Shown here in pieces: positions 3,120-61,390 of a stretch of 64,000 nt of DNA. The position numbers and the translations under genes are program-made. The number at the start of each line of letters is the position of its first letter. The stretch's first letter is position 1. The notes below the pieces were generated by a model that made no database searches, had not been told where the DNA came from, and saw only the letters and a list, made by a program, of their open reading frames with translations. Source of the stretch: Patescibacteria group bacterium (lineage in GTDB: Bacteria > Patescibacteriota > Patescibacteriia > Patescibacteriales > UBA12465); assembly GCA_035269015.1 (NCBI GenBank), contig DATFJU010000031.1, positions 41,326-105,325 of the forward strand, given 5' to 3'.

Positions 3120-3545
3120 TTATTCAATAACCTCCGTAGCTGAATTTTTTACCTGTCTAGAAATTTCCCATTTTTCCTTCTTGTTTTCCAATACATCTTT
3201 TACTGAAGTTGGCATATTAGGATCGCTATAAACTTCCCTATTTCCTGATACACCATTTAATTCTTCTCCACTAATATCATCATTACTATTTTCTTCTATA
3301 TTTCCCTCATTATCTGATTGATTATCATTCTCTTTAATGGATTCTATTTTATCACCTGAATCACTAGTTGTCAACTCTTCACTCCTATCACTTTTATTCT
3401 CATTTTTTTCATTATTAAGCAACTTTTGATAATCTTTTAAGGATACAGCTACCCATGATTTTTCAGGGTTTTCAAGATTATATATAACTAATCTATCATT
3501 ATTTTCCTGTGATAGACTAAGTAATTTTAGTAAATCATTATTCAT
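3120..3545 (-). CDS. hypothetical acidic protein inserted between fusA and tuf
   Basis: 141 aa. Ordered N-terminus (LVIYNLENPEKSWVAVSLKDYQKL) followed by an Asp/Glu/Ser/Asn-rich disordered stretch. It starts 10 nt after the fusA stop and is probably co-transcribed. No recognisable family. Confidence 0.5.
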   Translation of the reverse strand: MNNDLLKLLSLSQENNDRLVIYNLENPEKSWVAVSLKDYQKLLNNEKNENKSDRSEELTTSDSGDKIESIKENDNQSDNEGNIEENSNDDISGEELNGVSGNREVYSDPNMPTSVKDVLENKKEKWEISRQVKNSATEVIE

Positions 3546-10648: not shown

Positions 10649-10813
10649 CTAATCAGAGCTACTATAATTTTTTAATACCTCAACACCACCATGTCTATTA
10701 ACCACATCTAATTGCTCTTTTGTGGCTCTATCAACGGCCTGTTTAACTATTTTTGCTTTTTCAGTTGTATTTAAACCAAAAAAATTATTATTATTTTTCA
10801 TTTTCTTTTTCAT
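10649..10813 (-). CDS. small ORF (54 aa) overlapping the 3' end of the zeta-toxin-like gene; possible cognate partner, speculative
   Basis: Read manually; below the ORF-track size cutoff. MKKKMKNNNNFFGLNTTEKAKIVKQAVDRATKEQLDVVNRHGGVEVLKNYSSSD. It overlaps the zeta gene stop by about 20 nt in another frame. No family recognised. Confidence 0.3.
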   Translation of the reverse strand: MKKKMKNNNNFFGLNTTEKAKIVKQAVDRATKEQLDVVNRHGGVEVLKNYSSSD

Positions 10814-11576
10814 ATATTAATTCATTTAGTGTTTTACGATTATATTTTAATTTTAAGTAATTGTCAATATTATCAATATTAAATTTAATATTTTTTGTTT
10901 TTGTATTACTTATATCTTTTTCAACCAACCAAACTTCAACTTTCTTTTTATATTCTTTTTTTATTATATTAACATTCAAAATTGATTTGAATAAAGAATT
11001 AATAAACATATCTTTCTTAATTTTCCTTCCCTCATCTCTTTCTCTAATTTTTGTAAAACCCCAAGCTATTAATGGATCCTGATAAACATAAACAATAAAT
11101 ATGTTTGCATTAATTTTTAAGGCTGATTTAATATTTTTTTGAACAACCCCAATAGAAGAAAAGGTTCCATCTATTATAGTGTGATATTTATTTTTTACAC
11201 AATTATCAAATAAAATTTCTATTCCTTTTATACAGCCTCTTTTATATTTATCTGAATTTTTACCATTATATCCTAGCGGTCTAAAAATATTTCTAATTTC
11301 ATCTGCATCAATCCTAACAATACCATTATTTAAACTTCTTTTTTCTAAAATTTTTATTAATTTTTGTGACCACTCAGTTTTACCTGCACCTGGAGCACCA
11401 GCCATAAAAATAAAAACTGGTTTATTATTTGATTTAATGTCGTCACTGATAAATTTTTTTATAATTTCTTTTTTATGTTTTTTTGCAAACCTAAAAGATT
11501 CATCACTTATATTATTCATATAACAATTATAACAAAAATCAACAGCTCTCTCAACTGTTGATTTTATAATATACAA
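10791..11576 (-). CDS. zeta-toxin/PezT-family P-loop kinase (putative UDP-N-acetylglucosamine kinase toxin)
   Basis: 261 aa. Walker A GAPGAGKTE, then the zeta catalytic Asp motif IVRIDADEIR; YHTIIDGTFSS and ANIFIVYVYQDPLIAWGFTKIR align with the PezT/zeta core. Start is 12 nt after the rpsI stop. Confidence 0.7.
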   Translation of the reverse strand: MYIIKSTVERAVDFCYNCYMNNISDESFRFAKKHKKEIIKKFISDDIKSNNKPVFIFMAGAPGAGKTEWSQKLIKILEKRSLNNGIVRIDADEIRNIFRPLGYNGKNSDKYKRGCIKGIEILFDNCVKNKYHTIIDGTFSSIGVVQKNIKSALKINANIFIVYVYQDPLIAWGFTKIRERDEGRKIKKDMFINSLFKSILNVNIIKKEYKKKVEVWLVEKDISNTKTKNIKFNIDNIDNYLKLKYNRKTLNELIYEKENEK

Positions 11577-11588
11577 ATATGTATAATT

Positions 11589-12110
11589 TTAACGTTTACT
11601 CCATTGCGGTCTCTTTCTAGCTTTTCTAAGACCTGGTTTCTTTCTTTCTTTCTTTCTAGAATCTCTAGTTAACCAGCTTTGAACTTTAAAGACTTCTCTT
11701 AAACCTTCATCTAAACTAAGCAAGGCTCTAGCTACACCATGTCTAATTGCTTCAACTTGAGCTTGTACTCCTCCACCTTTTACTATTATAGAAATATCAA
11801 AATCTTTAAGACGATTAGCTTCTTTAAGAGGCTCTAAAGCAATGTTATGTTTATCTGCTGGAAAATATTCTTTAATCTTTTTGCCATTAACAAAAACTAA
11901 ACCTTTACCTTTTTCATGAAGTCTTACTTGAGCTACAGCTGTTTTTCTTCTCCCTACAGCTCTAGTATATTTACCAGAAAAATTAGCATCCTCTATTTTA
12001 TCTACTTTCTTTTCTACTTTCTTTTCTTCCTTTTTTTCTGCTTTTTCCTCAACTTTATCTGTCTTAGCTGTGCTTTTTTCTTTACTTGTTGTTTTACTTG
12101 CGCTAGGCAT
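11589..12110 (-). CDS. rpsI: 30S ribosomal protein S9 with ~45-aa Lys/Glu-rich N-terminal extension
   Basis: 173 aa. The uS9 core (GRRKTAVAQVRL...GGGVQAQVEAIRHGVARAL...RKKPGLRKARKRPQWSKR) is preceded by KEKSTAKTDKVEEKAEKKEEKKVEKKVDK. Confidence 0.9.
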   Translation of the reverse strand: MPSASKTTSKEKSTAKTDKVEEKAEKKEEKKVEKKVDKIEDANFSGKYTRAVGRRKTAVAQVRLHEKGKGLVFVNGKKIKEYFPADKHNIALEPLKEANRLKDFDISIIVKGGGVQAQVEAIRHGVARALLSLDEGLREVFKVQSWLTRDSRKKERKKPGLRKARKRPQWSKR

Positions 12111-12113
12111 ATT

Positions 12114-12470
12114 TTATTGAATAATTAATCTTTTTAACATTTCTTTTCTAAATTTTACTGGAGGAAGCATTTCTCTAACAGCTCTTTGTAGTACTTCAGC
12201 TGGGTTTTTCTCATATACTTCACCCATAGTTTTTTCTTTAAGACCTCCTGGATAGCCAGAATATCTAAAATACTTTTTTTGATCTAATTTTTTTCCACTA
12301 AATCTCAACTTATCAATATTTTTTACCTCTACCACATCACCACAATCTAAATTAGGTTCGAATTCAACCTTATTTTTTCCACGGAGTAAGGTAGCAATAT
12401 CAGTAGCAATTATTCCTAAAACTTTATCTGTAGCATCTATAGTATATTTTTGTCTTGTTATTTTTTTCAT
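12114..12470 (-). CDS. rplM: 50S ribosomal protein L13 (compact form)
   Basis: 118 aa with uL13-like N-terminal region (IDATDKVLG...LLRGKNK). Conserved rplM-rpsI order. Confidence 0.85.
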   Translation of the reverse strand: MKKITRQKYTIDATDKVLGIIATDIATLLRGKNKVEFEPNLDCGDVVEVKNIDKLRFSGKKLDQKKYFRYSGYPGGLKEKTMGEVYEKNPAEVLQRAVREMLPPVKFRKEMLKRLIIQ

Positions 12471-12475
12471 ATAAA

Positions 12476-12826
12476 TTATACTAATTCAATTTGTACTATC
12501 TTTGCACCATCGCCTGAACGAGTGCCTAATTTTATAATACGAGTATACCCGCCTTGCCTATCTTTATATCTATCAGCTAGAACTTCCATAGCTTTTCTAA
12601 TAGCTAACTTCTGAGGTAGTGAACTGATAAGTTTTCTTCTGGCGCTTAAATCTTGCTTTTTAGAAACAGTAATTAATTTTTCCACTAAAGGTTTAACAGC
12701 TTTAGCTTTAGCTTCAGTAGTTTTAACTTTTTCATACATTAAAATACTAGATGCTAGATTATTTAGCATAGCTTCTCTTGGTGCTTTTTTCCTGTCTAGG
12801 ATTACTCCTTTATTTCTATGTCTCAT
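12476..12826 (-). CDS. rplQ: 50S ribosomal protein L17
   Basis: 116 aa. MRHRNKG...GGYTRIIKLGTR.GD: bL17 signature. Follows rpoA as in the alpha operon. Confidence 0.9.
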   Translation of the reverse strand: MRHRNKGVILDRKKAPREAMLNNLASSILMYEKVKTTEAKAKAVKPLVEKLITVSKKQDLSARRKLISSLPQKLAIRKAMEVLADRYKDRQGGYTRIIKLGTRSGDGAKIVQIELV

Positions 12827-12835
12827 ATTAATATA

Positions 12836-13594
12836 TTATTTTTTGTCTTTCTTATTTTCTTCGCTCTTTTTAGAGCTATCCTTACTAGTACTTTTTTTAG
12901 CTTCTTTTTCTTTTGGTAGTAATGAACTAAATTGATTAACTAAAATATTAACTGAATCATTAAAGGCTTCTTCAAAGCTCATAGTTCCGTCAGTAGTAAT
13001 ATCCAAAACAAGTTTATCCCAGTTAGTCATCTTACCAACACGCACATTTTCTACTTTTAAACTTACCTCTACAACAGGAGAAAAAACTGAATCAATTTCT
13101 AAATATCCTAAATCTTTAGCTTCTTTTTTATTAGTTTCAGTTAACTTATAACCTCTACCAGCACTAACTATTATTTCCATGTCTAAACTACCTTTAGCAT
13201 CTGTAATTTCAGCAATCTTTAAATCAGAGTTAATAATTTCTACATCACTGTTTTTTTCAATATCTTTAGCAGTAACTTTCTTTTTTCCACTAACATGAAG
13301 CTCTAATTTAATCTCTTCATCAGAATGAACTTTTAATCTTAACTCTTTTAAGTTTAAAATAATCTCTAATACATCTTCTTGAATATTAGGTAATGCCATA
13401 AATTCATGATCCGCTCCTTTTATTTTAACACCAATAACTGCAGCACCTGGAAGTGAAGAAAGAAGAACCCTGCGAAGCGAATTACCCAGTGTCATGCCAT
13501 AACCAATATATAAAGGTTCGATACTTACATGCCCTGAATTGGCACTATCACCTTTTTTAAAATCAATTTTGTTTGGTAAGGCAATATTTTCCAT
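12836..13594 (-). CDS. rpoA: DNA-directed RNA polymerase alpha subunit, N-terminal (assembly) domain only; alpha-CTD replaced by a Lys/Ser-rich tail
   Basis: 252 aa. The alpha-NTD (GYGMTLGNSLRRVLLSSLPGAAV...) ends about residue 230 and is followed by KEAKKSTSKDSSKKSEENKKDKK. No alpha-CTD/helix-hairpin-helix module is present, and rplQ starts 10 nt downstream. Confidence 0.85.
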   Translation of the reverse strand: MENIALPNKIDFKKGDSANSGHVSIEPLYIGYGMTLGNSLRRVLLSSLPGAAVIGVKIKGADHEFMALPNIQEDVLEIILNLKELRLKVHSDEEIKLELHVSGKKKVTAKDIEKNSDVEIINSDLKIAEITDAKGSLDMEIIVSAGRGYKLTETNKKEAKDLGYLEIDSVFSPVVEVSLKVENVRVGKMTNWDKLVLDITTDGTMSFEEAFNDSVNILVNQFSSLLPKEKEAKKSTSKDSSKKSEENKKDKK

Positions 13595-13614: not shown

Positions 13615-14220
13615 TTATTTAGAATAAAACTCTACAATAGCTCTAGTATCAATACTTTGATCTACGTCAGTTTCTGTCTTTGGTTCATGTAATACTTTAG
13701 CACTTAATGATTTAAGATCAAGATTTAACCAACCAGGAACTTTTTGCAAGTCTAATTCTTGTTTTATGATTTCAAAATATTTACTTTTTTGACTTTTTTC
13801 TTTTACAGTAATCTCATCCCCTTCTTTTACTTTAAATGAAGGTATATTTACTCTTCTACCATTTACTCTAATATGAGCATGATTAACAAGTTGTCTAGCT
13901 GCTGGTCTACTTTTAGCAAAACCTAGTCTATATATCACATTATCCAATCTTAATTCTAATAATTTCAATAAATTAAAACCAGCATCTCCATCTAATCTTT
14001 GAGCCTTGTTAAAAGTTAGTCTAAACTGCTTTTCTCTTAAATTATATATAACTTTAGCTTTTTGTTTTTGAGCTAACTGTTCTCCATAGTCACTTCTTCT
14101 ACCTCTACCTTTTGGTCCATGAAATCCAGGCGGATAATTACGCTTCACAAGTGGAGATTTATTTGAATCTGTTGTTTTAATGCCGTAGCGACGACAAATT
14201 TTGTTGCTATAAAAATTCAT
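13615..14220 (-). CDS. rpsD: 30S ribosomal protein S4
   Basis: 201 aa. N-terminal uS4 Zn-ribbon-like region plus S4 RNA-binding domain (LDNVIYRLGFAKSRPAARQLVNHAHIRVNGRRVN). Confidence 0.9.
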   Translation of the reverse strand: MNFYSNKICRRYGIKTTDSNKSPLVKRNYPPGFHGPKGRGRRSDYGEQLAQKQKAKVIYNLREKQFRLTFNKAQRLDGDAGFNLLKLLELRLDNVIYRLGFAKSRPAARQLVNHAHIRVNGRRVNIPSFKVKEGDEITVKEKSQKSKYFEIIKQELDLQKVPGWLNLDLKSLSAKVLHEPKTETDVDQSIDTRAIVEFYSK

Positions 14221-14232
14221 AAATTCTATAAA

Positions 14233-14931
14233 TTAAACTCTACGTGGTTTTTTAGGTCTACAACCATTGTGTGGTACAGCAGTAACATCTTTAATGGCTG
14301 TAACTTCAAGGCCATTAGCATTTAAAGCTCTGATTGCTGATTCCTTACCAGTCCCTACTCCAGAGGCAAATACTGCTACTTCTTTTAAGCCATACTCTTC
14401 TTTGGCTTTCATGGTAGCAATTTTAGTAATAATTTGAGCAGCATATGGAGTAGCTTTCTTTGGTCCTTTAAAACCAGCAACACCAGCACTTGCCCATGAT
14501 ATTACACCTCCTTGTAAATCGGTAAGAGTTACAATGGTATTATTGTATGTAGCTTTAATGAATGCTTTTCCTGTCTTTACTTGAGTTTGAGGACCTTTCT
14601 TTTTCTTCTTTTTCTGTTTTTTCTTATTAACCTTCTCTCTAGCTATTTTATTTTTCTCTAACTTTTCTTTAATTTCTTCTGGCAACTCTTCATCATCCGC
14701 GCTTGAAAAAATACTGCTTTCCTCTTCCTCCTCCTCTTCTTCAACTTTAGCTTTTTCTTCAGGTTTTTCCTTTTTAGCTTCTTTTTTAGCTTCTTTACTT
14801 ACTTTTTTTGTATCTTCTTTTTTTAAAACAGCTTTTATTTCTTTTTCATCCTCAAATTCGACTTCTTCAAGTTTAGAGTCTTCTTTGATTTCTTCTGTTT
14901 TTTTTGCTTTTTGAGCCTTATCTTCACTCAT
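14233..14931 (-). CDS. rpsK: 30S ribosomal protein S11 with ~100-aa Lys/Glu-rich N-terminal extension
   Basis: 232 aa. The uS11 core ([18 protein letters not shown]...[15 protein letters not shown]...[13 protein letters not shown]) occupies the C-terminal ~125 aa. The N-terminus is poly-K/E, including an EEEEEEEE run and a [11 protein letters not shown] stretch. Confidence 0.9.
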
Positions 14932-14953: not shown

Positions 14954-15352
14954 TTAAGTTTTTTGAGCCGTAGCATTGGTTTTACCTGAACCCATAGTCA
15001 AACGTTTATTACCTCTAGCTGTACGACTATTAGTTTTAGTTCTTTGCCCTCTAGTAGGTAATCTTTTTGCGTGACGAGAACCACGAACACTATCTATTTC
15101 TTTTAATCTTTTAATGTTTCCACCAATTTGTCTTCTTAAATCTCCTTCAACAGTATAATTCTTTTCAATATATTCACGAATCTTATTAGCATCAGCTTCT
15201 TTTAAATCTTTAACTCTAGTACTAGCATCTATTTTTACTTGTTCAACAATCTTTTGAGCTTCACTGAGTCCAATACCATAAATATAAGTTAATGCATATT
15301 CTATTTTTTTGTCACTGGGGATATTAATTCCAGCAATTCTTATATTAGCCAT
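14954..15352 (-). CDS. rpsM: 30S ribosomal protein S13
   Basis: 132 aa. IAGINIP...ALTYIYGIG...PTRGQRTKTNSRT: uS13. Confidence 0.9.
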   Translation of the reverse strand: MANIRIAGINIPSDKKIEYALTYIYGIGLSEAQKIVEQVKIDASTRVKDLKEADANKIREYIEKNYTVEGDLRRQIGGNIKRLKEIDSVRGSRHAKRLPTRGQRTKTNSRTARGNKRLTMGSGKTNATAQKT

Positions 15353-15363
15353 AAAATAATAAA

Positions 15364-15477
15364 TTAACCCTGTCTTTGCTTATGTTTAGGGGTTTTACAA
15401 ATAACATAAACACGGCCTTTACGTCTAACGACCTGGCAATATTTACACATCTTTTTTACACTTGCTCTTACTTTCAT
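15364..15477 (-). CDS. rpmJ: 50S ribosomal protein L36
   Basis: Read manually; below the ORF-track size cutoff. Minus strand encodes [37 protein letters not shown] (37 aa), the canonical bL36 sequence, between infA and rpsM. Confidence 0.85.
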
Positions 15478-15537: not shown

Positions 15538-15822
15538 TTAAAGTCTATAAACTATCCTGCCCTTATTTAAGTCATAAGGACTGATTTCAAGTTTAACTTT
15601 ATCACCTGGTAACAATCTAATCTTGTTCATCCTCATCTTACCAGACAAATGAGCCATGATTTCATGACCATTTTCTAGAGCCACCTTAAAAGTAGTGGCA
15701 GGCATAAGCTCAAGCACTTCTCCTTCCATTTCTAAGAAGTCCTTTGAGTTTTGTACCTGTGATTGTTCTTTTAAATTTTTATTATTTTCCATTAACACAA
15801 AAATTTGATAAAGAAAAAACAT
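15538..15822 (-). CDS. infA: translation initiation factor IF-1 (true start may be the internal Met at 15792)
   Basis: The S1-like IF-1 core ([55 protein letters not shown]) aligns with bacterial IF-1. The N-terminal ~35 aa are an extension. Confidence 0.85.
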
Positions 15823-15939: not shown

Positions 15940-17712
15940 TTATCCCTCTAATACAGCCTTTATTCTCCTAACCCCGGCACTACTACTTTCTTCTTTTTTA
16001 ATCTTAAATTTACCTAATTTTCCAGTATTTTCAACATGTGGTCCTCCACAAATTTCTCTAGAAAAGTAATTATCATTATCTCCTACTTGATAAACTTTAA
16101 CACGTTCTCCATATTTAGATTCAAAAACTCCCATAGCATTTTTAGCTCTTGCTTCCTCTAAAGTCATTTCTTCAAAAGTAACTGGCAAGTCTTGAGCTAT
16201 AATTTCATTTACTATTTCTTCCACTTCTTCTTTTTGTTCTGCTGTTAATTTTTCTAGATGAGAAAAATCAAAACGTAATCTTTCTGAAGTAATATTTGAC
16301 CCTCGTTGCTCAACATGATCACCTAAAACTTTTCTAAGAGCTGCTAACAATAAATGAGCAGCTGTATGAAGCTTAGTCGTTTCTTCACCACTGTCAGCTA
16401 AACCACCCTGAAACTTCCCAGCTGAAGCTGTGCGAGAAAGTGCTTGATGTTTAGCCATAGCATCTTGAAAATCCTTATCAAAATCTGAAGCTAAGTTAAG
16501 ATTTTTTTCTTTAGCTATTTCTTTAGTCATCTCTACTGGATAACCAAAGGTTTGAAAAATATTAAAAGCTTCTTCCCCGCTTATCTCATTTTTTATATTA
16601 TCAATTTGCTTAGCTCCAGCTTCTAAAGTGCTTAAAAACTTCTTCTCTTCTTTATCAATCTCTATAATAATAAAATCTTTATTCCTCTTTAACTCTTGAT
16701 AAACATCTTGATAATTATCTATAACAATTTCAGCTAAATCTTTAAAGCTATAATCAACCTCACTATTTAGTTGCCTCATATACCTTAAAGCTCTTCTAAT
16801 TAACTTTCTAAGTACATAACCTTGATCAGTATTAGATGGTGACACCGCTTTATCATCTCCTAAAATAAAAGTAGCCGCTCTAATATGATCAGCTATAATA
16901 CGTATCTCTTTAGTTCTGTCTTCATATTTAGCGCCTGTTAAATCTTCTATTTTTTCCACTATAGGCCAAAGTAATTCTGTTTTATAAACATCACTTAAAT
17001 TATTAAGCACTGCTAAGGTTCTCCCAAGTCCCATCCCGGTGTCTACATTATGTTGGGATAATTTACTGTAGCCATCACTATTCTTTTGATACTCCATAAA
17101 AACATTATTCCAAATCTCTATCCAACCCTCATCATCAGGATTAAACTTTAAAGGTGCTGGTTCTTCTTTAGACCAATAGAAAATTTCTGTATCCGGTCCA
17201 GCTGGAGAATTTTCACCTGATAGTTCCCACCAATTTTCTTTCTTATCTAATTTGGCAACTCTATCTTCTTTTAAGCCTAAGTTAAGCCAAGCCTCATAAG
17301 ACTCTTCATCAAAGGGAGCGTTCTCATCACCTTTAAAAACAGACACAGCAATCTTTTCTTTATCAAGTCCTAGCCATTCTTTTGAAACTAGAAATTCATA
17401 TGAATATTTTATTGCCTCTTCTTTAAAGTAATCGCCTAAAGACCAATTACCTAACATTTCAAAGAAAGTATTATGAGTATTATCACCAACCTCATCTATA
17501 TCACCTGTACGAATACATTTTTGAATGTTTACCAATCTTTTTCCACTAGCATGACTTTGCCCCAGTAAATATGGAACCAATGGGTGCATACCAGCAGTGG
17601 TAAAAAGTACTGTGGGATCATTTTCAGGTATAAGCGAAGCGCTACTTAACATACTATGATCTTTAGTTACAAAGAAGCTTAAATATTTATCTCTTAATTC
17701 TTTAGCTGTCAT
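15940..17712 (-). CDS. alaS: alanine--tRNA ligase, short form (catalytic + editing domains; no C-Ala domain)
   Basis: 590 aa. N-terminus FTTAGMHP (class II motif region); editing-domain HTAAHLLLAAL and CGGPHV motifs near the C-terminus. It ends about 280 aa short of canonical AlaRS. Confidence 0.9.
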   Translation of the reverse strand: MTAKELRDKYLSFFVTKDHSMLSSASLIPENDPTVLFTTAGMHPLVPYLLGQSHASGKRLVNIQKCIRTGDIDEVGDNTHNTFFEMLGNWSLGDYFKEEAIKYSYEFLVSKEWLGLDKEKIAVSVFKGDENAPFDEESYEAWLNLGLKEDRVAKLDKKENWWELSGENSPAGPDTEIFYWSKEEPAPLKFNPDDEGWIEIWNNVFMEYQKNSDGYSKLSQHNVDTGMGLGRTLAVLNNLSDVYKTELLWPIVEKIEDLTGAKYEDRTKEIRIIADHIRAATFILGDDKAVSPSNTDQGYVLRKLIRRALRYMRQLNSEVDYSFKDLAEIVIDNYQDVYQELKRNKDFIIIEIDKEEKKFLSTLEAGAKQIDNIKNEISGEEAFNIFQTFGYPVEMTKEIAKEKNLNLASDFDKDFQDAMAKHQALSRTASAGKFQGGLADSGEETTKLHTAAHLLLAALRKVLGDHVEQRGSNITSERLRFDFSHLEKLTAEQKEEVEEIVNEIIAQDLPVTFEEMTLEEARAKNAMGVFESKYGERVKVYQVGDNDNYFSREICGGPHVENTGKLGKFKIKKEESSSAGVRRIKAVLEG

Positions 17713-32860: not shown

Positions 32861-33868
32861 TTATTTAGTTGCTAATATTGATCTCTTATATGAGTCAAGA
32901 TTTTCTAGAGCTGTGCCTGTGCCTTTAGCCACACAAAGTAATGCATCATCTGCAATATAAGCTGGCACACCTGTAGTTCTAGAAAAAAGTTGATCTATAT
33001 TTCTAAGTAAAGCACTACCCCCTGAAATAACCATACCTTTATCCATAATATCAGCTGCTAACTCTGGAGGAGTATTATTTAAAACTTTCTTAGCTGCATT
33101 TATTATCGCTTCCAATTCATTTTGTATAGATTCAGTAATATCATCACTACTTACCACGATAGATCTAGGCAGCCCTGTCATAATATCTCTACCTCTAATT
33201 TCCATACTAAGTTTATCTTCAATAAATAAAGCTGATCCAATGTTAATCTTTAACTCCTCAGCTGTACGCTCACCAATAGCTAAGTTATATTTCTTTTTAA
33301 TAAATTCTAAAATAGACTTATCAAATTTATTCCCTCCAACTCTAACAGAGGCTGAATAAACCACACCACCCAAAGAGATTACCGCCATTTCTGATGTTCC
33401 ACCACCAATATCAACTATCATATGACCAGTCGCTGAACCAATTGGTATTTCAGCACCAATAGCAGCTGCTACTGGTTCTTTAATAATATAAGCGGCCTTA
33501 GCTCCAGCAGCAATTGTAGCCTCTACTACTGCTCTTCTTTCAGTAGAAGAAATACCAGCTGGCACTGCTACCATAACCTCTGGTCTAAACAATCTAATAC
33601 CTCCTAAAGTTTTATTAATAAAGTACCTAATCATAGCTTCAGTAATACGATAATCAGCAATAACACCATCTTTTAAGGGTTTTACAGCAATAATAGAATC
33701 AGGCGTTCTACCTAACATATCCTTAGCTTCATTACCAACTGCTAATATTTTTCTATCATCCACTGAAACAGCCACAACTGATGGTTCATTAATTACTATT
33801 CCTCTTTTAGGTAAGTATACTAGAGTGTAAGTTGTACCTAAATCAATCCCTATTTTTTTTGCAAACAT
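32861..33868 (-). CDS. mreB: MreB/Mbl-family actin-like protein (second paralog, outside the mreBCD operon)
   Basis: 335 aa. IGIDLGTTYTLVY phosphate-1, VDIGGGTSEMAVISLGG phosphate-2, ISGGSALLRNID adenosine motif. Confidence 0.85.
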   Translation of the reverse strand: MFAKKIGIDLGTTYTLVYLPKRGIVINEPSVVAVSVDDRKILAVGNEAKDMLGRTPDSIIAVKPLKDGVIADYRITEAMIRYFINKTLGGIRLFRPEVMVAVPAGISSTERRAVVEATIAAGAKAAYIIKEPVAAAIGAEIPIGSATGHMIVDIGGGTSEMAVISLGGVVYSASVRVGGNKFDKSILEFIKKKYNLAIGERTAEELKINIGSALFIEDKLSMEIRGRDIMTGLPRSIVVSSDDITESIQNELEAIINAAKKVLNNTPPELAADIMDKGMVISGGSALLRNIDQLFSRTTGVPAYIADDALLCVAKGTGTALENLDSYKRSILATK

Positions 33869-33928: not shown

Positions 33929-34333
33929 CTAAAAACCATTACCACTATTTTGTTTGTTATTTAAAATTCTAATTACTTTTTCTGAAAACTCATTAATATC
34001 AAAATCTGTTTTAATAAAGTAATAGTCAGCTCCTAACTCCATACTACGATTCTTACTATCTTCATCACTAAGATCAGTAAAGACAAAAACTGATAAATCT
34101 TTAAGCTCATCTTCAGATCTAATAGCTTCCAAAAGTTCAAAACCATCTAAGTCAGGTAAAATTAAATCTAAAATTACATAATCAAACTTACTTTTTTTAA
34201 TATAAGCTAAAAGCTCTTCTAAAGTTTCTTCTCCGGTAGTGATTTCTACTTCATAACCTTCCGAACTAAAACGAGATTGTAAGCCATAGAGTAAATTGGC
34301 ATCATCTTCAATGATATATATTTTTTTACTCAT
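33929..34333 (-). CDS. single-domain response regulator (CheY-like receiver only)
   Basis: 134 aa. Acidic pocket IIEDD, phospho-acceptor Asp in VILDLILPDLDGF, conserved T/K positions. No output domain, and no histidine kinase in the window. Confidence 0.8.
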   Translation of the reverse strand: MSKKIYIIEDDANLLYGLQSRFSSEGYEVEITTGEETLEELLAYIKKSKFDYVILDLILPDLDGFELLEAIRSEDELKDLSVFVFTDLSDEDSKNRSMELGADYYFIKTDFDINEFSEKVIRILNNKQNSGNGF

Positions 34334-39131: not shown

Positions 39132-40175
39132 TTAATCTTCCATGTCAGCAGAAGAGACTATCTTTTCTAAAAGCTCAAAATCATCAAGCAACGCACCAGC
39201 TCCTCTAGACACACAAGTTAAGGGGTCTTCTACAATATTAACGGGGATTTTAGTAGCTTGAGCAATAGCTTTATCCAAACCCCTAAGCATAGACCCACCA
39301 CCTGAAATATATATACCCCTTTGATAAATATCAGAAACTAACTCAGGAGGTGTATTTTCTAAAGTATTTTTAATATTATCTACCATTTTACTTACAGTTT
39401 TAGAAATAGCTTCTCTAACTTGATCATCACTTATATTTATAGCTTTTGGTAAACCAGTTAAGAGATCTCTACCTCTAACTTCTATTGTTTTAGGTTCTTC
39501 TAATGGCAAAGCACTACCAATCTCAATCTTTACCTTCTCTGCTAATTGTTCTCCAATTAAAATGTTAAACTCTTCTTTAATATAATCAACAATATTAGTA
39601 TCAAACTCATTACCAGCAATTCTAAGTGACTTCCAAGTAACTACACCGCCTAAAGATATCACAGCAATCTCAGTAGTACCTCCACCAATATCAACCATCA
39701 TAGTAGCAGTGGCTTCAGTGACTGGCAATCCTGAACCAATAGCTGCAGCCATAGCTTCATCTATCAAATATACCTTTCTAGCTCCAGCAGACTTAGCAGC
39801 ATCTTCAACAGCTTTTTTTTCTACCTCTGTTAAGTCAAGTGGAATTCCAATTACAACTCTTGGTCTAGGAATAAGGGTAAAAGTTTCACTGTGAACTTTG
39901 TTAATAAAATACTTAAGCATTTTTTCAGTTACTTCAAAATCAGAAATAACCCCATCAATTAATGGTTTAATAGCTTCAATATGGCCAGGAGTTTTTCCTA
40001 CCATTTTTTTAGCTGCTAGACCTACTTCTAAGATTTCAGCTGTTCTATTATTAATAGCTACCACTGATGGTTCATTAATAATCACTCCTTTATCTTTAAC
40101 ATAAATCAAGGTATTTTTTGTACCCAAGTCTATTCCTAAATCATTGCTAAATTTTCCCAGTAATTTATTAAACAT
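39132..40175 (-). CDS. mreB: rod shape-determining protein MreB
   Basis: 347 aa. GIDLGTKNTLIYV, VDIGGGTTEIAVISLGG, ISGGGSMLRGLD actin-fold motifs. First gene of the mreBCD operon. Confidence 0.9.
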   Translation of the reverse strand: MFNKLLGKFSNDLGIDLGTKNTLIYVKDKGVIINEPSVVAINNRTAEILEVGLAAKKMVGKTPGHIEAIKPLIDGVISDFEVTEKMLKYFINKVHSETFTLIPRPRVVIGIPLDLTEVEKKAVEDAAKSAGARKVYLIDEAMAAAIGSGLPVTEATATMMVDIGGGTTEIAVISLGGVVTWKSLRIAGNEFDTNIVDYIKEEFNILIGEQLAEKVKIEIGSALPLEEPKTIEVRGRDLLTGLPKAINISDDQVREAISKTVSKMVDNIKNTLENTPPELVSDIYQRGIYISGGGSMLRGLDKAIAQATKIPVNIVEDPLTCVSRGAGALLDDFELLEKIVSSADMED

Positions 40176-41538: not shown

Positions 41539-42108
41539 TTATATATTTTTCAGTGCTTGTTTCACTCTTTCTCCACTATCACTAATATTTTTATCCACTT
41601 TTCTTAAGGCTTCCCTGGCTTCATTCATGTTATAACCCAAAGCCATTAAAGCATCCATCTCATCACTAGAGCTAACACCTGTTTGTGTATCGGTTTTAAA
41701 GTCAGCTAACTTAGCTATCTTCTCTTTTAACTCTAAGACCACCCTTTGAGCTGTTTTTTTACCTATTCCTGAGACTTTAGTTAACATACCAGCATCTTCT
41801 GAGGCAATAGCTTCTTTTAAGTGATTAGTACTACTTAGTGATAGCACAGCTAAAGCAGACTTGGGTCCAATACCAGATACTGATAGTAGCATCTCAAACA
41901 TTTCTAAATCATCTAAACTTTTAAAACCATATAAGTCTAAGCTGTCTTCTCTAACATGTTGATGGGTATACAACTCTACTTCACTATCTTTAGTAATTTC
42001 ACTATAAATATCAGCACTAACACTAACCTTATAGCCTAAACCTTGATTTAAAATTATTAAATCACCACCTTGTTTAGCAATAATTTTACCTTGAATGTAT
42101 GCAATCAT
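41539..42108 (-). CDS. ruvA: Holliday junction branch migration protein RuvA
   Basis: 189 aa. MIAYIQGKI N-terminal OB domain, two HhH motifs (GIGPKSALAVL / GIGKKTAQRVV), C-terminal domain III. Confidence 0.85.
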   Translation of the reverse strand: MIAYIQGKIIAKQGGDLIILNQGLGYKVSVSADIYSEITKDSEVELYTHQHVREDSLDLYGFKSLDDLEMFEMLLSVSGIGPKSALAVLSLSSTNHLKEAIASEDAGMLTKVSGIGKKTAQRVVLELKEKIAKLADFKTDTQTGVSSSDEMDALMALGYNMNEAREALRKVDKNISDSGERVKQALKNI

Positions 42109-45840: not shown

Positions 45841-48756
45841 TTATTTTATTTTTTCTAAACCAATATTTATTGATTTATTATTAATATTAATTTGTTTTTT
45901 AATCTCAGTTTCTACCTCTGTTTCAAGCTTAGTAATCTTATCAGCTAAAACTTCTCTTTCTATATCCTCTTGATATTTATTTATTGCTGCTGCAAATTCA
46001 GGCTCTAAGCTTGAATAATAAACAACAACTCTATCTTCTATAGTTAAGCCAGAATTCTTTCTTAAATTATTGATAACTCTAATAATTTCTCTCTTCATCC
46101 CTTCTTCAATTAAGTCTGGACTTAAGTTAGTATCTAAAACTACTTCAATATTTTCTTTTTCTTTATCTAATTCAAAGCTTAATTCCTTAATATTTAATTC
46201 ATCCTTAATTAAAGCAAAATAATCTTCAGCTAAGGCTAAATCTTCTTTAAATACTACCGTAGCTTTTTGTAATGGCTGTCTAACTTTTAATTTATTTTCA
46301 TCACGCTGAGCCAAACCTTTTTCTACTATTTCTTTAACTAATTCCATCTTAGAAATAATATCAGTATTTATCTCTTTAATCTCGGGCCAAGATTCTAAGT
46401 GTACACTTTTATTTTCATCTTTAAAATTATAATCATTAATTTTTTGCCACATTGTTTCTGCCATAAAAGGCATAAAAGGTGCCATTGTTAAGGAAAGTTT
46501 TTCAAATACTGTCTTTAAAGTACTAAGCGCTTTTAACTTTTCCTGTCTATCCTCTCCTTTTAGCCTATCTCTTGATCTTCTTAGATACCAAGTAGAGAGA
46601 TCATCGATAAAGATAGCAATTGGCTTAGAAGCTCTAACTAAATCATATTTTTTCATATTATCTTCAATCTCAGCAGTTGTTTGTTGTAATCGTGCCAATA
46701 TCCAATTATCTAAAACATTATCACTTTCACTTATAGTTTCCACCTCTTTTTCCCTATACATATCATAGAACTTATACACATTCCAAACTAACATAGAAGT
46801 TTTACGAAATGACTGCAACACGTCGGCTTCACTAAAATTAATAGTTTCAGCTTGCATAACCGGAGAACAAAGTAAATAATATCTTAAAGCATCAGCACTA
46901 TATTTTTCAATCACTTCCATAGGATCAGGATAGTTTTGTAGTCTCTTAGACATCTTTTTACCATCTTCTGCTAAAACTATACCATTAACAATCACATTTT
47001 TAAAAGCTGGCCTATCCATGATAGCGGTAGATAATACGTGTAAATAATAGAACCACGCTCTAGTTTGATCCGCTCCTTCAGCTATAAACTCTGCTGGAAA
47101 ATTACCCTCAAACTTAGCTTTATTTTCAAAAGGATAATGCTTTTGAGCATAAGGCATAGAACCAGATTCAAACCAACAATCAAAAACATCTTCAATACGC
47201 TTCATAGTACCACCACAATCACATTTAATTTCAATCTTATCTAAAGTGTGCTTGTGTAAATCTTCAACTTTTTCTCCACTCGCTTCTTCTAAATCTTTAA
47301 CTCCACCAAAAACCTTAGTATTTTCACAAGTGTCACATTTCCAAACTGGAAGCACTGCTGCCCAAAAACGTTGACGAGATATAGACCAATCTCTAGCACC
47401 TTCTAACCATTTACCAAATCTTCCTCTTTTAATATGTTCAGGTGACCAATTAATTTCTTGAGCTTTTTTAAGTAAATCTTCTTTTATTTTTTCTACACTT
47501 ACAAAATATGAAGAAGTAGCATAGTTAATAAGTGGTGTTTCACAGCGCCAACAATGAGGATAACTATGCTCATATTTTTCTTTAGAAAATAACCTATCAT
47601 GATGAGCTAAATACTTAACTATTTCTATGTCAGTAGCCATGTGATCACTCTTTGGTTTAACGGACATATCTTGAAAATCATGCACCTCTTCTTTAAACCT
47701 ACCACCAATATCAATGTGTTGAACAAAAGGCAAGTTTTTTTCTTTACCTAAGTTAAGGTCATCTTCACCAAAAGCTGGAGCGATATGTACAATACCTGTT
47801 CCCTCTTCAGTATTAACAAAATCAGCGCTTTGTATTTTGAAAGCATTTTCTATATTTTTTATATCAGCGTTTTGATAATAATAAAAGACGGGCTCATAAT
47901 CTAAACCTACTAAATCTTTGGCGTATAAAAGCTCTTCTATTTTATAATCTTTATCCTTAAAAACTTCCTCTAATCTTTCTTTAGCTAAAATATAATAATC
48001 ATCTTCATATTCAACTTTAACGTATTCAATATCTTCTCCCACAGCTAAAGCGACATTAGCAATTAAAGTCCAAGGTGTAGTAGTCCAAGCTAACAAAAAA
48101 GTATTATCCTGGTCTTTAATTTTAAACTTAGCTGTGACTGATAAATCTTTAATATCTTTATACCCTTCAGTTACCTCAGATTGAGATAAAGTGGTTTCAC
48201 ATCTAGGACAAACGTGCATGGAGCGATATCCTTTATATATTAAATCTTTCTCCCATAAAGTTTTAAATACCCACCAAACAGATTCCATATAATCTAAGTC
48301 CATGGTCTTATAACTACTATCCATTTCTGCCCATCTACCCAACTTATCTATAACCTTTCTCCATTCATCAGCATATTTTAAAACCTTAGTTTGACATGAT
48401 AAATTAAACTTTTCTATTCCAGTATCTACAATATCCTTTTTACTTTCTGTGCCCATTTCTTTTTCCACAATATTTTCAATAGGTAAACCATGACAATCCC
48501 AACCCCAACGTCTTTCCACTCTATAACCTTGCATGGTCCAAAATCTAGGAACAACATCTTTCATAATACTACCAACAATATGACCATAATGAGGTGTACC
48601 AGTAGCAAAAGGAGGACCATCATAAAAAACGTAATCACCATTTACTGCCTCTTTATTTACTGACTTTTTAAAAATGTCGTTTTCATTCCAAAAATCAAGG
48701 ACTTGGTTCTCGAATTCTGCAAATATATTCTTATTTTCTTTACTTTTTTCTGACAT
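45841..48756 (-). CDS. ileS: isoleucine--tRNA ligase, type 2 (eukaryote/archaea-like form)
   Basis: 971 aa. PPFATGTPHYGHIV HIGH region characteristic of type-2 IleRS; KMSKRL; CP1 editing domain; zinc-binding Cys in C-terminal region. Confidence 0.95.
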   Translation of the reverse strand: MSEKSKENKNIFAEFENQVLDFWNENDIFKKSVNKEAVNGDYVFYDGPPFATGTPHYGHIVGSIMKDVVPRFWTMQGYRVERRWGWDCHGLPIENIVEKEMGTESKKDIVDTGIEKFNLSCQTKVLKYADEWRKVIDKLGRWAEMDSSYKTMDLDYMESVWWVFKTLWEKDLIYKGYRSMHVCPRCETTLSQSEVTEGYKDIKDLSVTAKFKIKDQDNTFLLAWTTTPWTLIANVALAVGEDIEYVKVEYEDDYYILAKERLEEVFKDKDYKIEELLYAKDLVGLDYEPVFYYYQNADIKNIENAFKIQSADFVNTEEGTGIVHIAPAFGEDDLNLGKEKNLPFVQHIDIGGRFKEEVHDFQDMSVKPKSDHMATDIEIVKYLAHHDRLFSKEKYEHSYPHCWRCETPLINYATSSYFVSVEKIKEDLLKKAQEINWSPEHIKRGRFGKWLEGARDWSISRQRFWAAVLPVWKCDTCENTKVFGGVKDLEEASGEKVEDLHKHTLDKIEIKCDCGGTMKRIEDVFDCWFESGSMPYAQKHYPFENKAKFEGNFPAEFIAEGADQTRAWFYYLHVLSTAIMDRPAFKNVIVNGIVLAEDGKKMSKRLQNYPDPMEVIEKYSADALRYYLLCSPVMQAETINFSEADVLQSFRKTSMLVWNVYKFYDMYREKEVETISESDNVLDNWILARLQQTTAEIEDNMKKYDLVRASKPIAIFIDDLSTWYLRRSRDRLKGEDRQEKLKALSTLKTVFEKLSLTMAPFMPFMAETMWQKINDYNFKDENKSVHLESWPEIKEINTDIISKMELVKEIVEKGLAQRDENKLKVRQPLQKATVVFKEDLALAEDYFALIKDELNIKELSFELDKEKENIEVVLDTNLSPDLIEEGMKREIIRVINNLRKNSGLTIEDRVVVYYSSLEPEFAAAINKYQEDIEREVLADKITKLETEVETEIKKQININNKSINIGLEKIK

Positions 48757-60830: not shown

Positions 60831-61103
60831 TCAAAACAAATCAGAATGTGAACCAATTCTTAATAATAATATTAATAACTCCTTTTTATTTTTTTTATAG
60901 ATAAATAAAACATCTGATTTTAAATGACATTCATAACAACCTTTAAATTCTCCCACTAGTGAATGGTTATAATATTTTTTGGGCAATGGCTTTCCTTTTA
61001 TCAAAATATCTAAAAGATTTTCAAGTACCAAAAACAAATCTTTATCATGTTTAAAAGATTTTAAATCCTTTTTAAAGCGCTTAGAATATTTTAACGAAAA
61101 CAT
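60831..61103 (-). CDS. yafQ: type II toxin YafQ (RelE/ParE superfamily mRNA interferase)
   Basis: 90 aa. Aligns with E. coli YafQ (YSKRFKKDLK / YSGQYSKDVK; LVGEFKGCYECHLKSDVLFIYK / LQGSWKGYRDAHVEPDWILIYK; GSHSDLF / GTHAALF). Confidence 0.75.
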   Translation of the reverse strand: MFSLKYSKRFKKDLKSFKHDKDLFLVLENLLDILIKGKPLPKKYYNHSLVGEFKGCYECHLKSDVLFIYKKNKKELLILLLRIGSHSDLF

Positions 61104-61105
61104 AA

Positions 61106-61390
61106 TTACTTCTTTAACGCATCTTTAATAAGAGAAGAACCACTTTGAAAAGACTTAGAACTATTTTTAGCATCAATTATAGACTCTCTTAGCGTTTCAG
61201 CTTTTTTCAAGGTAAGCCCATTCTCACCTCTTATTTCAAAAGGGATGTTTTTAGTATTTATTATCTGCTTAAAAAACATTTTAACCGCTGAACTCATATC
61301 TAAACCTAGCTGATCTAATATAGCTTTAGTTTCTTTTTTTGTTTTGTGATCTATACGAATTTGCAATTGTTCACTATTTTTAGTCTTCAT
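61106..61390 (-). CDS. dinJ: DinJ/RelB-family antitoxin
   Basis: 94 aa. QLQIRIDHKTKKETKAILDQLGLDMSSAVKMFFKQII resembles the DinJ N-terminal RHH domain (VRARIDEDLKNQAADVLAGMGLTISDLVRITLTKV). It starts 2 nt upstream of yafQ. Confidence 0.7.
   Translation of the reverse strand: MKTKNSEQLQIRIDHKTKKETKAILDQLGLDMSSAVKMFFKQIINTKNIPFEIRGENGLTLKKAETLRESIIDAKNSSKSFQSGSSLIKDALKK

Follow-up and report, generated by a model that had tools for sequence, protein, structure and literature searches.

[quoted passage not shown] The N-terminal domain (alpha-NTD) suffices for assembly and basal transcription, for both of which the alpha-CTD is dispensable; UP elements and many activators require the alpha-CTD (PMC8321222; also established knowledge). 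In the genome-reduced symbionts Hodgkinia and Tremblaya, the NTD has been kept and the CTD lost, as in the protein described below (PMC8321222). CTD loss in Parcubacteria receives a passing mention in that paper, and this one sentence is all that we found in the literature on the alpha-CTD in CPR or Patescibacteria: PMC4508563, the source cited there for Parcubacteria, makes no mention of polymerase, and CTD loss is unmentioned in both a 2026 review of alpha-like subunits (PMC13374769) and a 2024 perspective on Patescibacteria (PMC11665869). The archaeal Rpo3/Rpo11 and the eukaryotic Rpb3/Rpb11 and AC40/AC19 are also alpha-like platforms without a CTD (PMC13374769; general knowledge); unlike the bacterial protein considered here, they are heterodimers with other insertions.

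Two further systems concern the way in which polymerase-bound proteins touch upstream DNA. In CarD from Myxococcus xanthus the C-terminal domain is disordered and runs from an acidic segment into RGRP AT-hooks; it binds the AT-rich minor groove upstream of a promoter, and other basic disordered tails can stand in for it (PMC4374960). In a structure with the RNAP holoenzyme, the C-terminal AT-hook of WhiB7 sits in an AT-rich minor groove of the promoter, and the WhiB minor-groove loop binds just upstream of the -35 element (PMC10243135). We found no paper describing an AT-hook on RpoA.

We analyzed a stretch of 64,000 nucleotides from a Patescibacteria group bacterium (hereafter the window, meaning this whole stretch), in which the rpoA gene keeps its canonical position, rpsM-rpsK-rpsD-rpoA-rplQ, within a cluster ordered infA-rpmJ-rpsM-rpsK-rpsD-rpoA-rplQ-rplM-rpsI. 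The relevant features are as follows:

15538..15822, minus strand: infA (IF-1), which opens the cluster
15364..15477, minus strand: rpmJ (L36), 37 aa, assigned from its sequence
14954..15352, minus strand: rpsM (S13)
14233..14931, minus strand: rpsK (S11), its N-terminus extended by a K/E-rich stretch of ~120 aa (Pfam match to residues 121-231 only)
13615..14220, minus strand: rpsD (S4), directly upstream of rpoA
12836..13594, minus strand: rpoA, an ORF of 252 aa with an ATG start, the TAA stop at 12836-12838 included (ORF list, Pfam, NCBIfam, phmmer)
12920..13594, minus strand: alpha-NTD, residues 1-225, with the dimerization domain PF01193, the insert PF01000 and the conserved LGNSLRRVLLSS assembly motif (Pfam, PDB alignment, AF2)
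12839..12919, minus strand: disordered tail of 27 aa, LPKEKEAKKSTSKDSSKKSEENKKDKK, where the linker and alpha-CTD would be expected; net charge +5 (AF2 pLDDT 41-47)
12839..12874, minus strand: terminal basic patch, the last 12 tail residues, SKKSEENKKDKK
12827..12835, minus strand: spacer of 9 nt from the rpoA stop to the rplQ start
12476..12826, minus strand: rplQ (L17), with its ATG at 12826 (Pfam PF01196)
12114-12470, minus strand: rplM, which follows rplQ and is joined to the alpha operon
11589-12110, minus strand: rpsI, joined to the alpha operon 3' of rplM

Upstream of infA-rpsM the window carries alaS and not secY-adk-map. The same holds for two related loci, L081 and L083, which have one unannotated ORF of ~400 aa in between; secY-adk-map is retained in the more distant CTD-less loci L082 and L087. 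Typical bacterial AlaRS proteins are much longer than 590 aa, the length of the one encoded in the window (15940-17712); those of the relatives measure 597-603 aa, and PF01411 and PF07973 are the only domains recorded. The window AlaRS may be without a C-terminal domain, which would be another instance of domain loss.

By its sequence, the product of the window rpoA is a clear bacterial RpoA. It scores 257.1 bits against the curated equivalog model TIGR02027 (cutoff 227.8), the match covering only positions 2-230 of the 298 in the model, and matches to the NCBIfam rpoA models likewise reach only about position 230-250 of 298-344. Both NTD profiles are matched over their full length (PF01000 at residues 56-172 and PF01193 at residues 26-222), and neither Pfam nor NCBIfam finds PF03118, the alpha-CTD, in this protein. 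In a phmmer search of PDB chains, residues 7-227 align with residues 11-232 of E. coli alpha (E = 2e-55), B. subtilis alpha aligns likewise (about residues 13-235), and no structure matches beyond the NTD. The AF2 model (101 homologs) has a pLDDT above 90 to about residue 223, with the last NTD helix at residues 207-223, and is disordered over residues of about 228-252. Comparison with the canonical RpoA of E. coli and B. subtilis, which consists of PF01193, PF01000 and PF03118, thus reveals an NTD that is 41-48% identical end to end, with a conserved LRR assembly motif and a gene placed between rpsD and rplQ; unlike these, the window protein is without the flexible linker and the HhH CTD (~85 aa) that reads UP elements and offers the docking surface for activators. 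A reading made earlier from the sequence alone had placed the end of the ORF at 252 aa, judged the NTD intact and set rplQ right after rpoA, all of which agrees with the ORF and its stop codon, the full-length Pfam matches, the high pLDDT of the NTD, and the 9-nt spacer ahead of a gene that Pfam identifies as L17. Its description of a Lys/Ser-rich tail without a CTD also stands, with the length corrected from 20 to 27 aa.

Since the NTD, which dimerizes and scaffolds beta and beta', is complete, the core RNA polymerase should assemble normally, and the retention of R41/R42, the equivalents of E. coli R44/R45, is likewise consistent with assembly into an alpha2-beta-beta' core. [quoted passage not shown] The sequence-only reading had derived a simplified promoter architecture or regulation from the missing domain; the missing domain is borne out, and a lack of UP-element reading and of CTD-dependent activation is a reasonable prediction from it. 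The sole regulator-like protein seen in the 64-kb window is a stand-alone response-regulator receiver domain (PF00072) with no output domain, which adjoins one of two MreB-like genes; this receiver-domain/MreB-like group occupies 33929-34333, 32861-33868 and 39132-40175.

Could the short form be an assembly truncation, a frameshift or a sequencing error in this contig? The comparative data rule this out, and we accord it a practically negligible probability. Independent assemblies at 88-94% identity (P0001-P0004, L001 and L002) have their stop at the same position, with a tail that is identical or nearly so. The closest relatives of the window RpoA are MAGs of Patescibacteria and Falkowbacteria, which bears out the CPR origin assumed in the sequence-only reading. 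Comparison with RpoA of these relatives finds the CTD-less form lineage-wide: the best 120 clusters (90% identity) from a collection of 5.8 billion proteins, whose named members are Patescibacteria, Pacebacteria or Falkowbacteria, have lengths of 187-298 aa and PF03118 in 0/120; and 80 loci of GTDB species representatives, which cover close relatives only, yielded 77 delimitable RpoA ORFs of 252-310 aa and no alpha-CTD in any frame in a six-frame HMM scan (0/80). Seven distant CTD-less RpoA proteins, about 40-50% identical to that of the window, are encoded inside contigs of 11-152 kb, and in all seven rplQ directly follows the short rpoA. In the window itself rplQ starts so soon after the rpoA stop that there is no room for a CTD, and neither tblastn nor the six-frame HMM finds a CTD in any downstream frame. 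Hence, the CTD-less alpha is genuine and fixed in this lineage. A second way to keep the domain would be a split rpoA with the CTD encoded elsewhere in the genome, as the sequence-only reading had suggested; the visible part of the genome is just 64 kb, which leaves this idea some space, and yet we find no support for it in the window or in 92 related loci. An HMM built from 83 CTDs was applied at maximum sensitivity, in all six frames, to these 658 kb (the window plus the 92 loci) and recovered 5/5 CTD-bearing rpoA genes that served as positive controls and nothing else; no stand-alone CTD was thus found in the window or in the 87 CTD-less related loci, the best score within the window (E = 0.1) falling inside ruvA. 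The CTDs of E. coli (the RpoA query being identical to that of NC_000913.3) and B. subtilis produced only chance or weak tblastn matches in the window. The matches at 47747-47939, antisense within ileS, at 17434-17532, in alaS, and at 41722-41844, in the HhH domain of RuvA, were all rejected as chance or generic HhH similarity. Moreover, the alpha-CTD works through its tethering to the rest of the subunit; once detached, it would be cut off from the connection it needs and could not act as the tethered module does. With 658 kb covered, a split gene is very improbable.

The absence of the CTD is not a general trait of CPR, and is specific to some clades within it. The view that all CPR lack the domain is ruled out by P0134, a protein of 320 aa from a "Patescibacteria group bacterium", and its 118 homologs, all of which have PF03118 and which include proteins labeled CPR2, Doudnabacteria and Parcubacteria group. 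Among the best 150 matches of an exhaustive HMMER search against 1.84 billion 50%-identity representatives, 83 have the CTD and ~53 are without it. A neighbor-joining (NJ) tree of the RpoA NTD alone was star-like and uninformative, and was superseded by an NJ tree of seven concatenated proteins (S13, S11, S4, RpoA-NTD, L17, L13 and S9; 25 loci and 1043 columns, E. coli serving as outgroup). There, the window, L002, a "Paceibacterota" MAG, Falkowbacteria and two AT-hook forms (see below) make up a clade with 100% support; the CTD-less P0176 groups among CTD-bearing proteins, and the CTD-less P0157 and P0230 fall outside a node with 87% support that holds the CTD-bearing Doudnabacteria and P0134. 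If regain is disallowed, this tree requires 4 losses; of 300 bootstrap trees, none is compatible with a single loss and 299 require at least 3, as do 293/300 when RpoA is omitted from the concatenation. The alpha-CTD was thus likely lost more than once in CPR, with about 4 losses on an NJ tree of seven proteins that has sparse sampling, one outgroup and deep-node support of 39-87%. A basic tail is present on each separate CTD-less branch of that tree. This patchy, apparently repeated loss sets the CPR apart from the above-mentioned symbionts, as does genome size: the contigs or chromosomes of the relatives measure about 0.5-1 Mb, up to 977 kb, unlike the 150 kb genomes of the symbionts.

What stands in place of the CTD in these proteins follows a recurrent pattern. 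The typical tail starts with LPGA, continues through 20-50 acidic residues and ends in a cluster, of which KKEKKEKKETKKKTKK and KPAKKKKAK are examples. Across 107 unique tails from close relatives the last 12 residues carry an average net charge of about +5 and the rest of the tail one of about -7.5; when residues were shuffled within each of 42 tails from 50%-identity representatives, 0/2000 shuffles reached the observed polarity. The mean net charge of the last 12 residues is +4.8 in the close CTD-less forms and +2.1 in the CTD-less representatives, versus -0.07 (n=81) and -0.73 (n=118) in CTD-bearing relatives of similar composition, and a 12-aa window with a net charge of at least +5 occurs in 76% of 178 CTD-less tails vs 12% of 201 CTD-bearing linkers. 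The acidic part has a counterpart in proteins that have the CTD: of the 201 inter-domain linkers from CTD-bearing relatives 41% are acidic, and the median linker measures 30 aa, compared with 24 aa for E. coli under the same HMM boundaries. The simplest reading of these sequences is that an arrangement of NTD, acidic linker and CTD became one of NTD, acidic linker and basic tip. Strongly Lys-rich linkers are already seen in some CTD-bearing CPR alpha subunits (P0134, P0136, P0145 and P0182; e.g., KKSKKEKATKTKTKAPAK), and these could represent a pre-adaptation that made the DNA contact of the CTD redundant before the domain was lost.

In nine CTD-less sequences from several 50%-identity clusters (P0020, P0070, P0071, P0081, P0121, P0135, P0139, P0141 and P0151) the basic end is a canonical AT-hook core, KK(K/R)RGRPKK, and AT-hooks are also encoded at the loci L034, L067, L069 and L075. 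The motif was found by regular expression; Pfam reports no AT-hook in the tails, as the motif is too short for it. In the carriers RGRP always lies within a few residues of the C-terminus, and it is absent from the CTD-bearing proteins (0/199). As Arg makes up only ~0.5% of tail residues, we estimate that chance recurrence of RGRP is negligible. The tails of P0157, P0176 and P0230 are of a different kind, being K/P/A-rich and histone-H1-like, and those of a few CTD-less representatives (P0125, P0126, P0149 and P0194) are purely acidic. The sequence-only reading had treated the tail of the window protein as replacement filler; the acidic-then-basic polarity of the relatives and their recurrent AT-hooks speak for more than that, and together suggest a partial functional replacement of the CTD.

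The tail in the window is a short and weak version of this family tail. Its 27 residues (226-252) comprise 11 K, 5 S, 4 E and 2 D, and are predicted to be disordered; it has no acidic segment and no RGRP core. P0001-P0005, the nearest relatives, retain the ending ..KKDKK, and the subclade to which the window belongs (P0001-P0005, L001 and L002) has the shortest tails, 23-32 aa, with neither an acidic stretch nor RGRP. The last 12 residues have a net charge of +3, and 17% of the 65 proteins of the window are at about +3 to +4 or more; with respect to Lys/Arg in the last 27 residues, the count of 11 is second among the window proteins only to that of S9. K/E-rich low-complexity extensions are borne by several ribosomal proteins of the window, which belongs to a genome of 30% GC: S11 (14233-14931) has 232 aa, with the ribosomal domain starting only at residue 121, S9 (11589-12110) has an N-terminal extension of ~52 aa, L3 (341-1180; 279 aa) has a K/E-rich C-terminus, and S10 (1365-1739) has a Lys-rich N-terminus. 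Extensions of this kind being frequent in the genome, part of the tail pattern is accounted for by compositional drift.

Given these observations, we propose that in the CTD-less alpha subunits the ancestral acidic linker between the domains was kept and that a Lys cluster at the terminus or a KK(K/R)RGRPKK AT-hook took the place of the CTD. Tethered to the polymerase on its upstream face by a flexible tail of 25-70 aa, the basic tip could reach the narrow minor groove of A/T-rich sequence lying upstream of -35, with a sequence-tolerant, non-specific upstream anchoring as the outcome. Such a tail would minimally substitute for the DNA-binding half of the alpha-CTD function and not for its activator-docking half. 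It would resemble CarD in that the family tail is disordered and acidic and then basic with RGRP, and is carried by a module bound to RNAP; unlike CarD, an accessory beta-binding protein with four AT-hooks, it has a single hook or Lys patch, of putative function, on the core alpha subunit itself. Similarly, the predicted AT-hook relatives share with WhiB7 a single C-terminal AT-hook on a protein tethered to polymerase, though WhiB7 is an Fe-S transcription factor on sigma region 4 and not a core subunit like alpha. PMC8321222 describes no patterned acidic/basic or AT-hook tail of the kind that replaces the CTD in CPR. Hence, with the bare loss already known in passing, three aspects appear to be new: that the loss within CPR is patchy and probably repeated, that an acidic linker is retained, and that a basic or AT-hook tip stands in for the CTD.

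The principal competitor of this proposal is pure reductive loss, under which the CTD was deleted during genome streamlining, no CTD-dependent activators or UP elements being left to use it, and the tail is a functionless, AT-biased remnant of the linker whose residues reflect a codon bias toward AAA for Lys and GAA for Glu. [quoted passage not shown] However, drift offers no explanation for the sorting of Lys to the extreme C-terminus with a polarity that none of the 2000 shuffles attained, basic termini are absent from CTD-bearing relatives of similar composition, RGRP, made of residues that are rare in the tails, occurs nine times at the same position, and basic tails are present after each independent loss. 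We consider reductive loss a serious possibility, if one held at well under even probability. The tail might alternatively have some other function, such as RNA or ribosome binding, partitioning into the nucleoid or a condensate as a polyampholyte, or, for its acidic part, DNA mimicry or auto-inhibition of the basic tip as in HMGA/HMGB. Disordered polyampholytes, whose possible roles are many, do typically show acidic-then-basic blocks, and rpoA lies among ribosomal protein genes with similar extensions; nevertheless, none of the listed roles has specific support, the AT-hook is a reader of the DNA minor groove in every characterized case cited, and the position of the tail on alpha is that of a DNA-binding domain, all of which makes another function improbable. 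Taken as a whole, the best explanation is a CTD-less alpha fixed in the lineage, with the tail as a partial substitute for the CTD, a reading to which we give even chances. That the tail is more than filler, and that its basic tip or AT-hook contacts the minor groove of upstream DNA, we put at a little below even. The broader proposition that several CPR lineages independently swapped the alpha-CTD for an AT-hook or an H1-like Lys tip that anchors the polymerase to A/T-rich DNA is more tentative, and we would sooner doubt it than affirm it; if true, it would amount to a convergent minimal "UP-element reader" within a core subunit, with activator docking given up.

A large and environmentally abundant CTD-less clade implies that bacterial transcription can run without the alpha-CTD outside of tiny endosymbionts. 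If the tail binds upstream DNA, it would be the simplest known means of keeping upstream promoter contacts, and it would predict a promoter architecture for CPR that could be useful in the design of promoters and reporters; genetic tools are listed as missing for Patescibacteria (PMC11665869). Annotation and completeness pipelines should also not flag the short rpoA of CTD-less clades as truncated.

Our analysis also turned up database records that call for caution. L001, L003-L007 and many others are clearly Patescibacteria and are titled "uncultured Gammaproteobacteria bacterium"; these mistitled records are TPA_asm MAGs, some with isolate names containing "binchicken". Further doubtful labels are Planctomycetota (L064), Bacillota (L068) and "Methanomicrobia archaeon" (P0041). 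As a guide to taxonomy, the record titles of the relatives are therefore unreliable. Some RpoA homologs have about twice the usual length, namely P0122 (569 aa), P0123 (526 aa; Candidatus Termititenax), P0155 (664 aa) and P0139 (475 aa); P0122, P0123 and P0155 have two matched NTD stretches, and P0139 has one, which starts close to residue 249. Tandem or fused alpha subunits could account for these proteins, as could fusions produced by gene calling or assembly.

Elsewhere in the window, a 141-aa ORF with no Pfam match (3120-3545) separates fusA from tuf within the str operon. Directly downstream of rpsI there is a gene for a zeta-toxin family kinase (10649-11576; PF06414, E = 7e-27), whose 3' end is overlapped by an ORF of 54 aa that could be its toxin-antitoxin partner. 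A second putative pair is formed by the adjacent ORFs of 90 and 94 aa at 60831-61390, which by eye resemble a RelE/YafQ-type toxin and a DinJ/RelB-type antitoxin.
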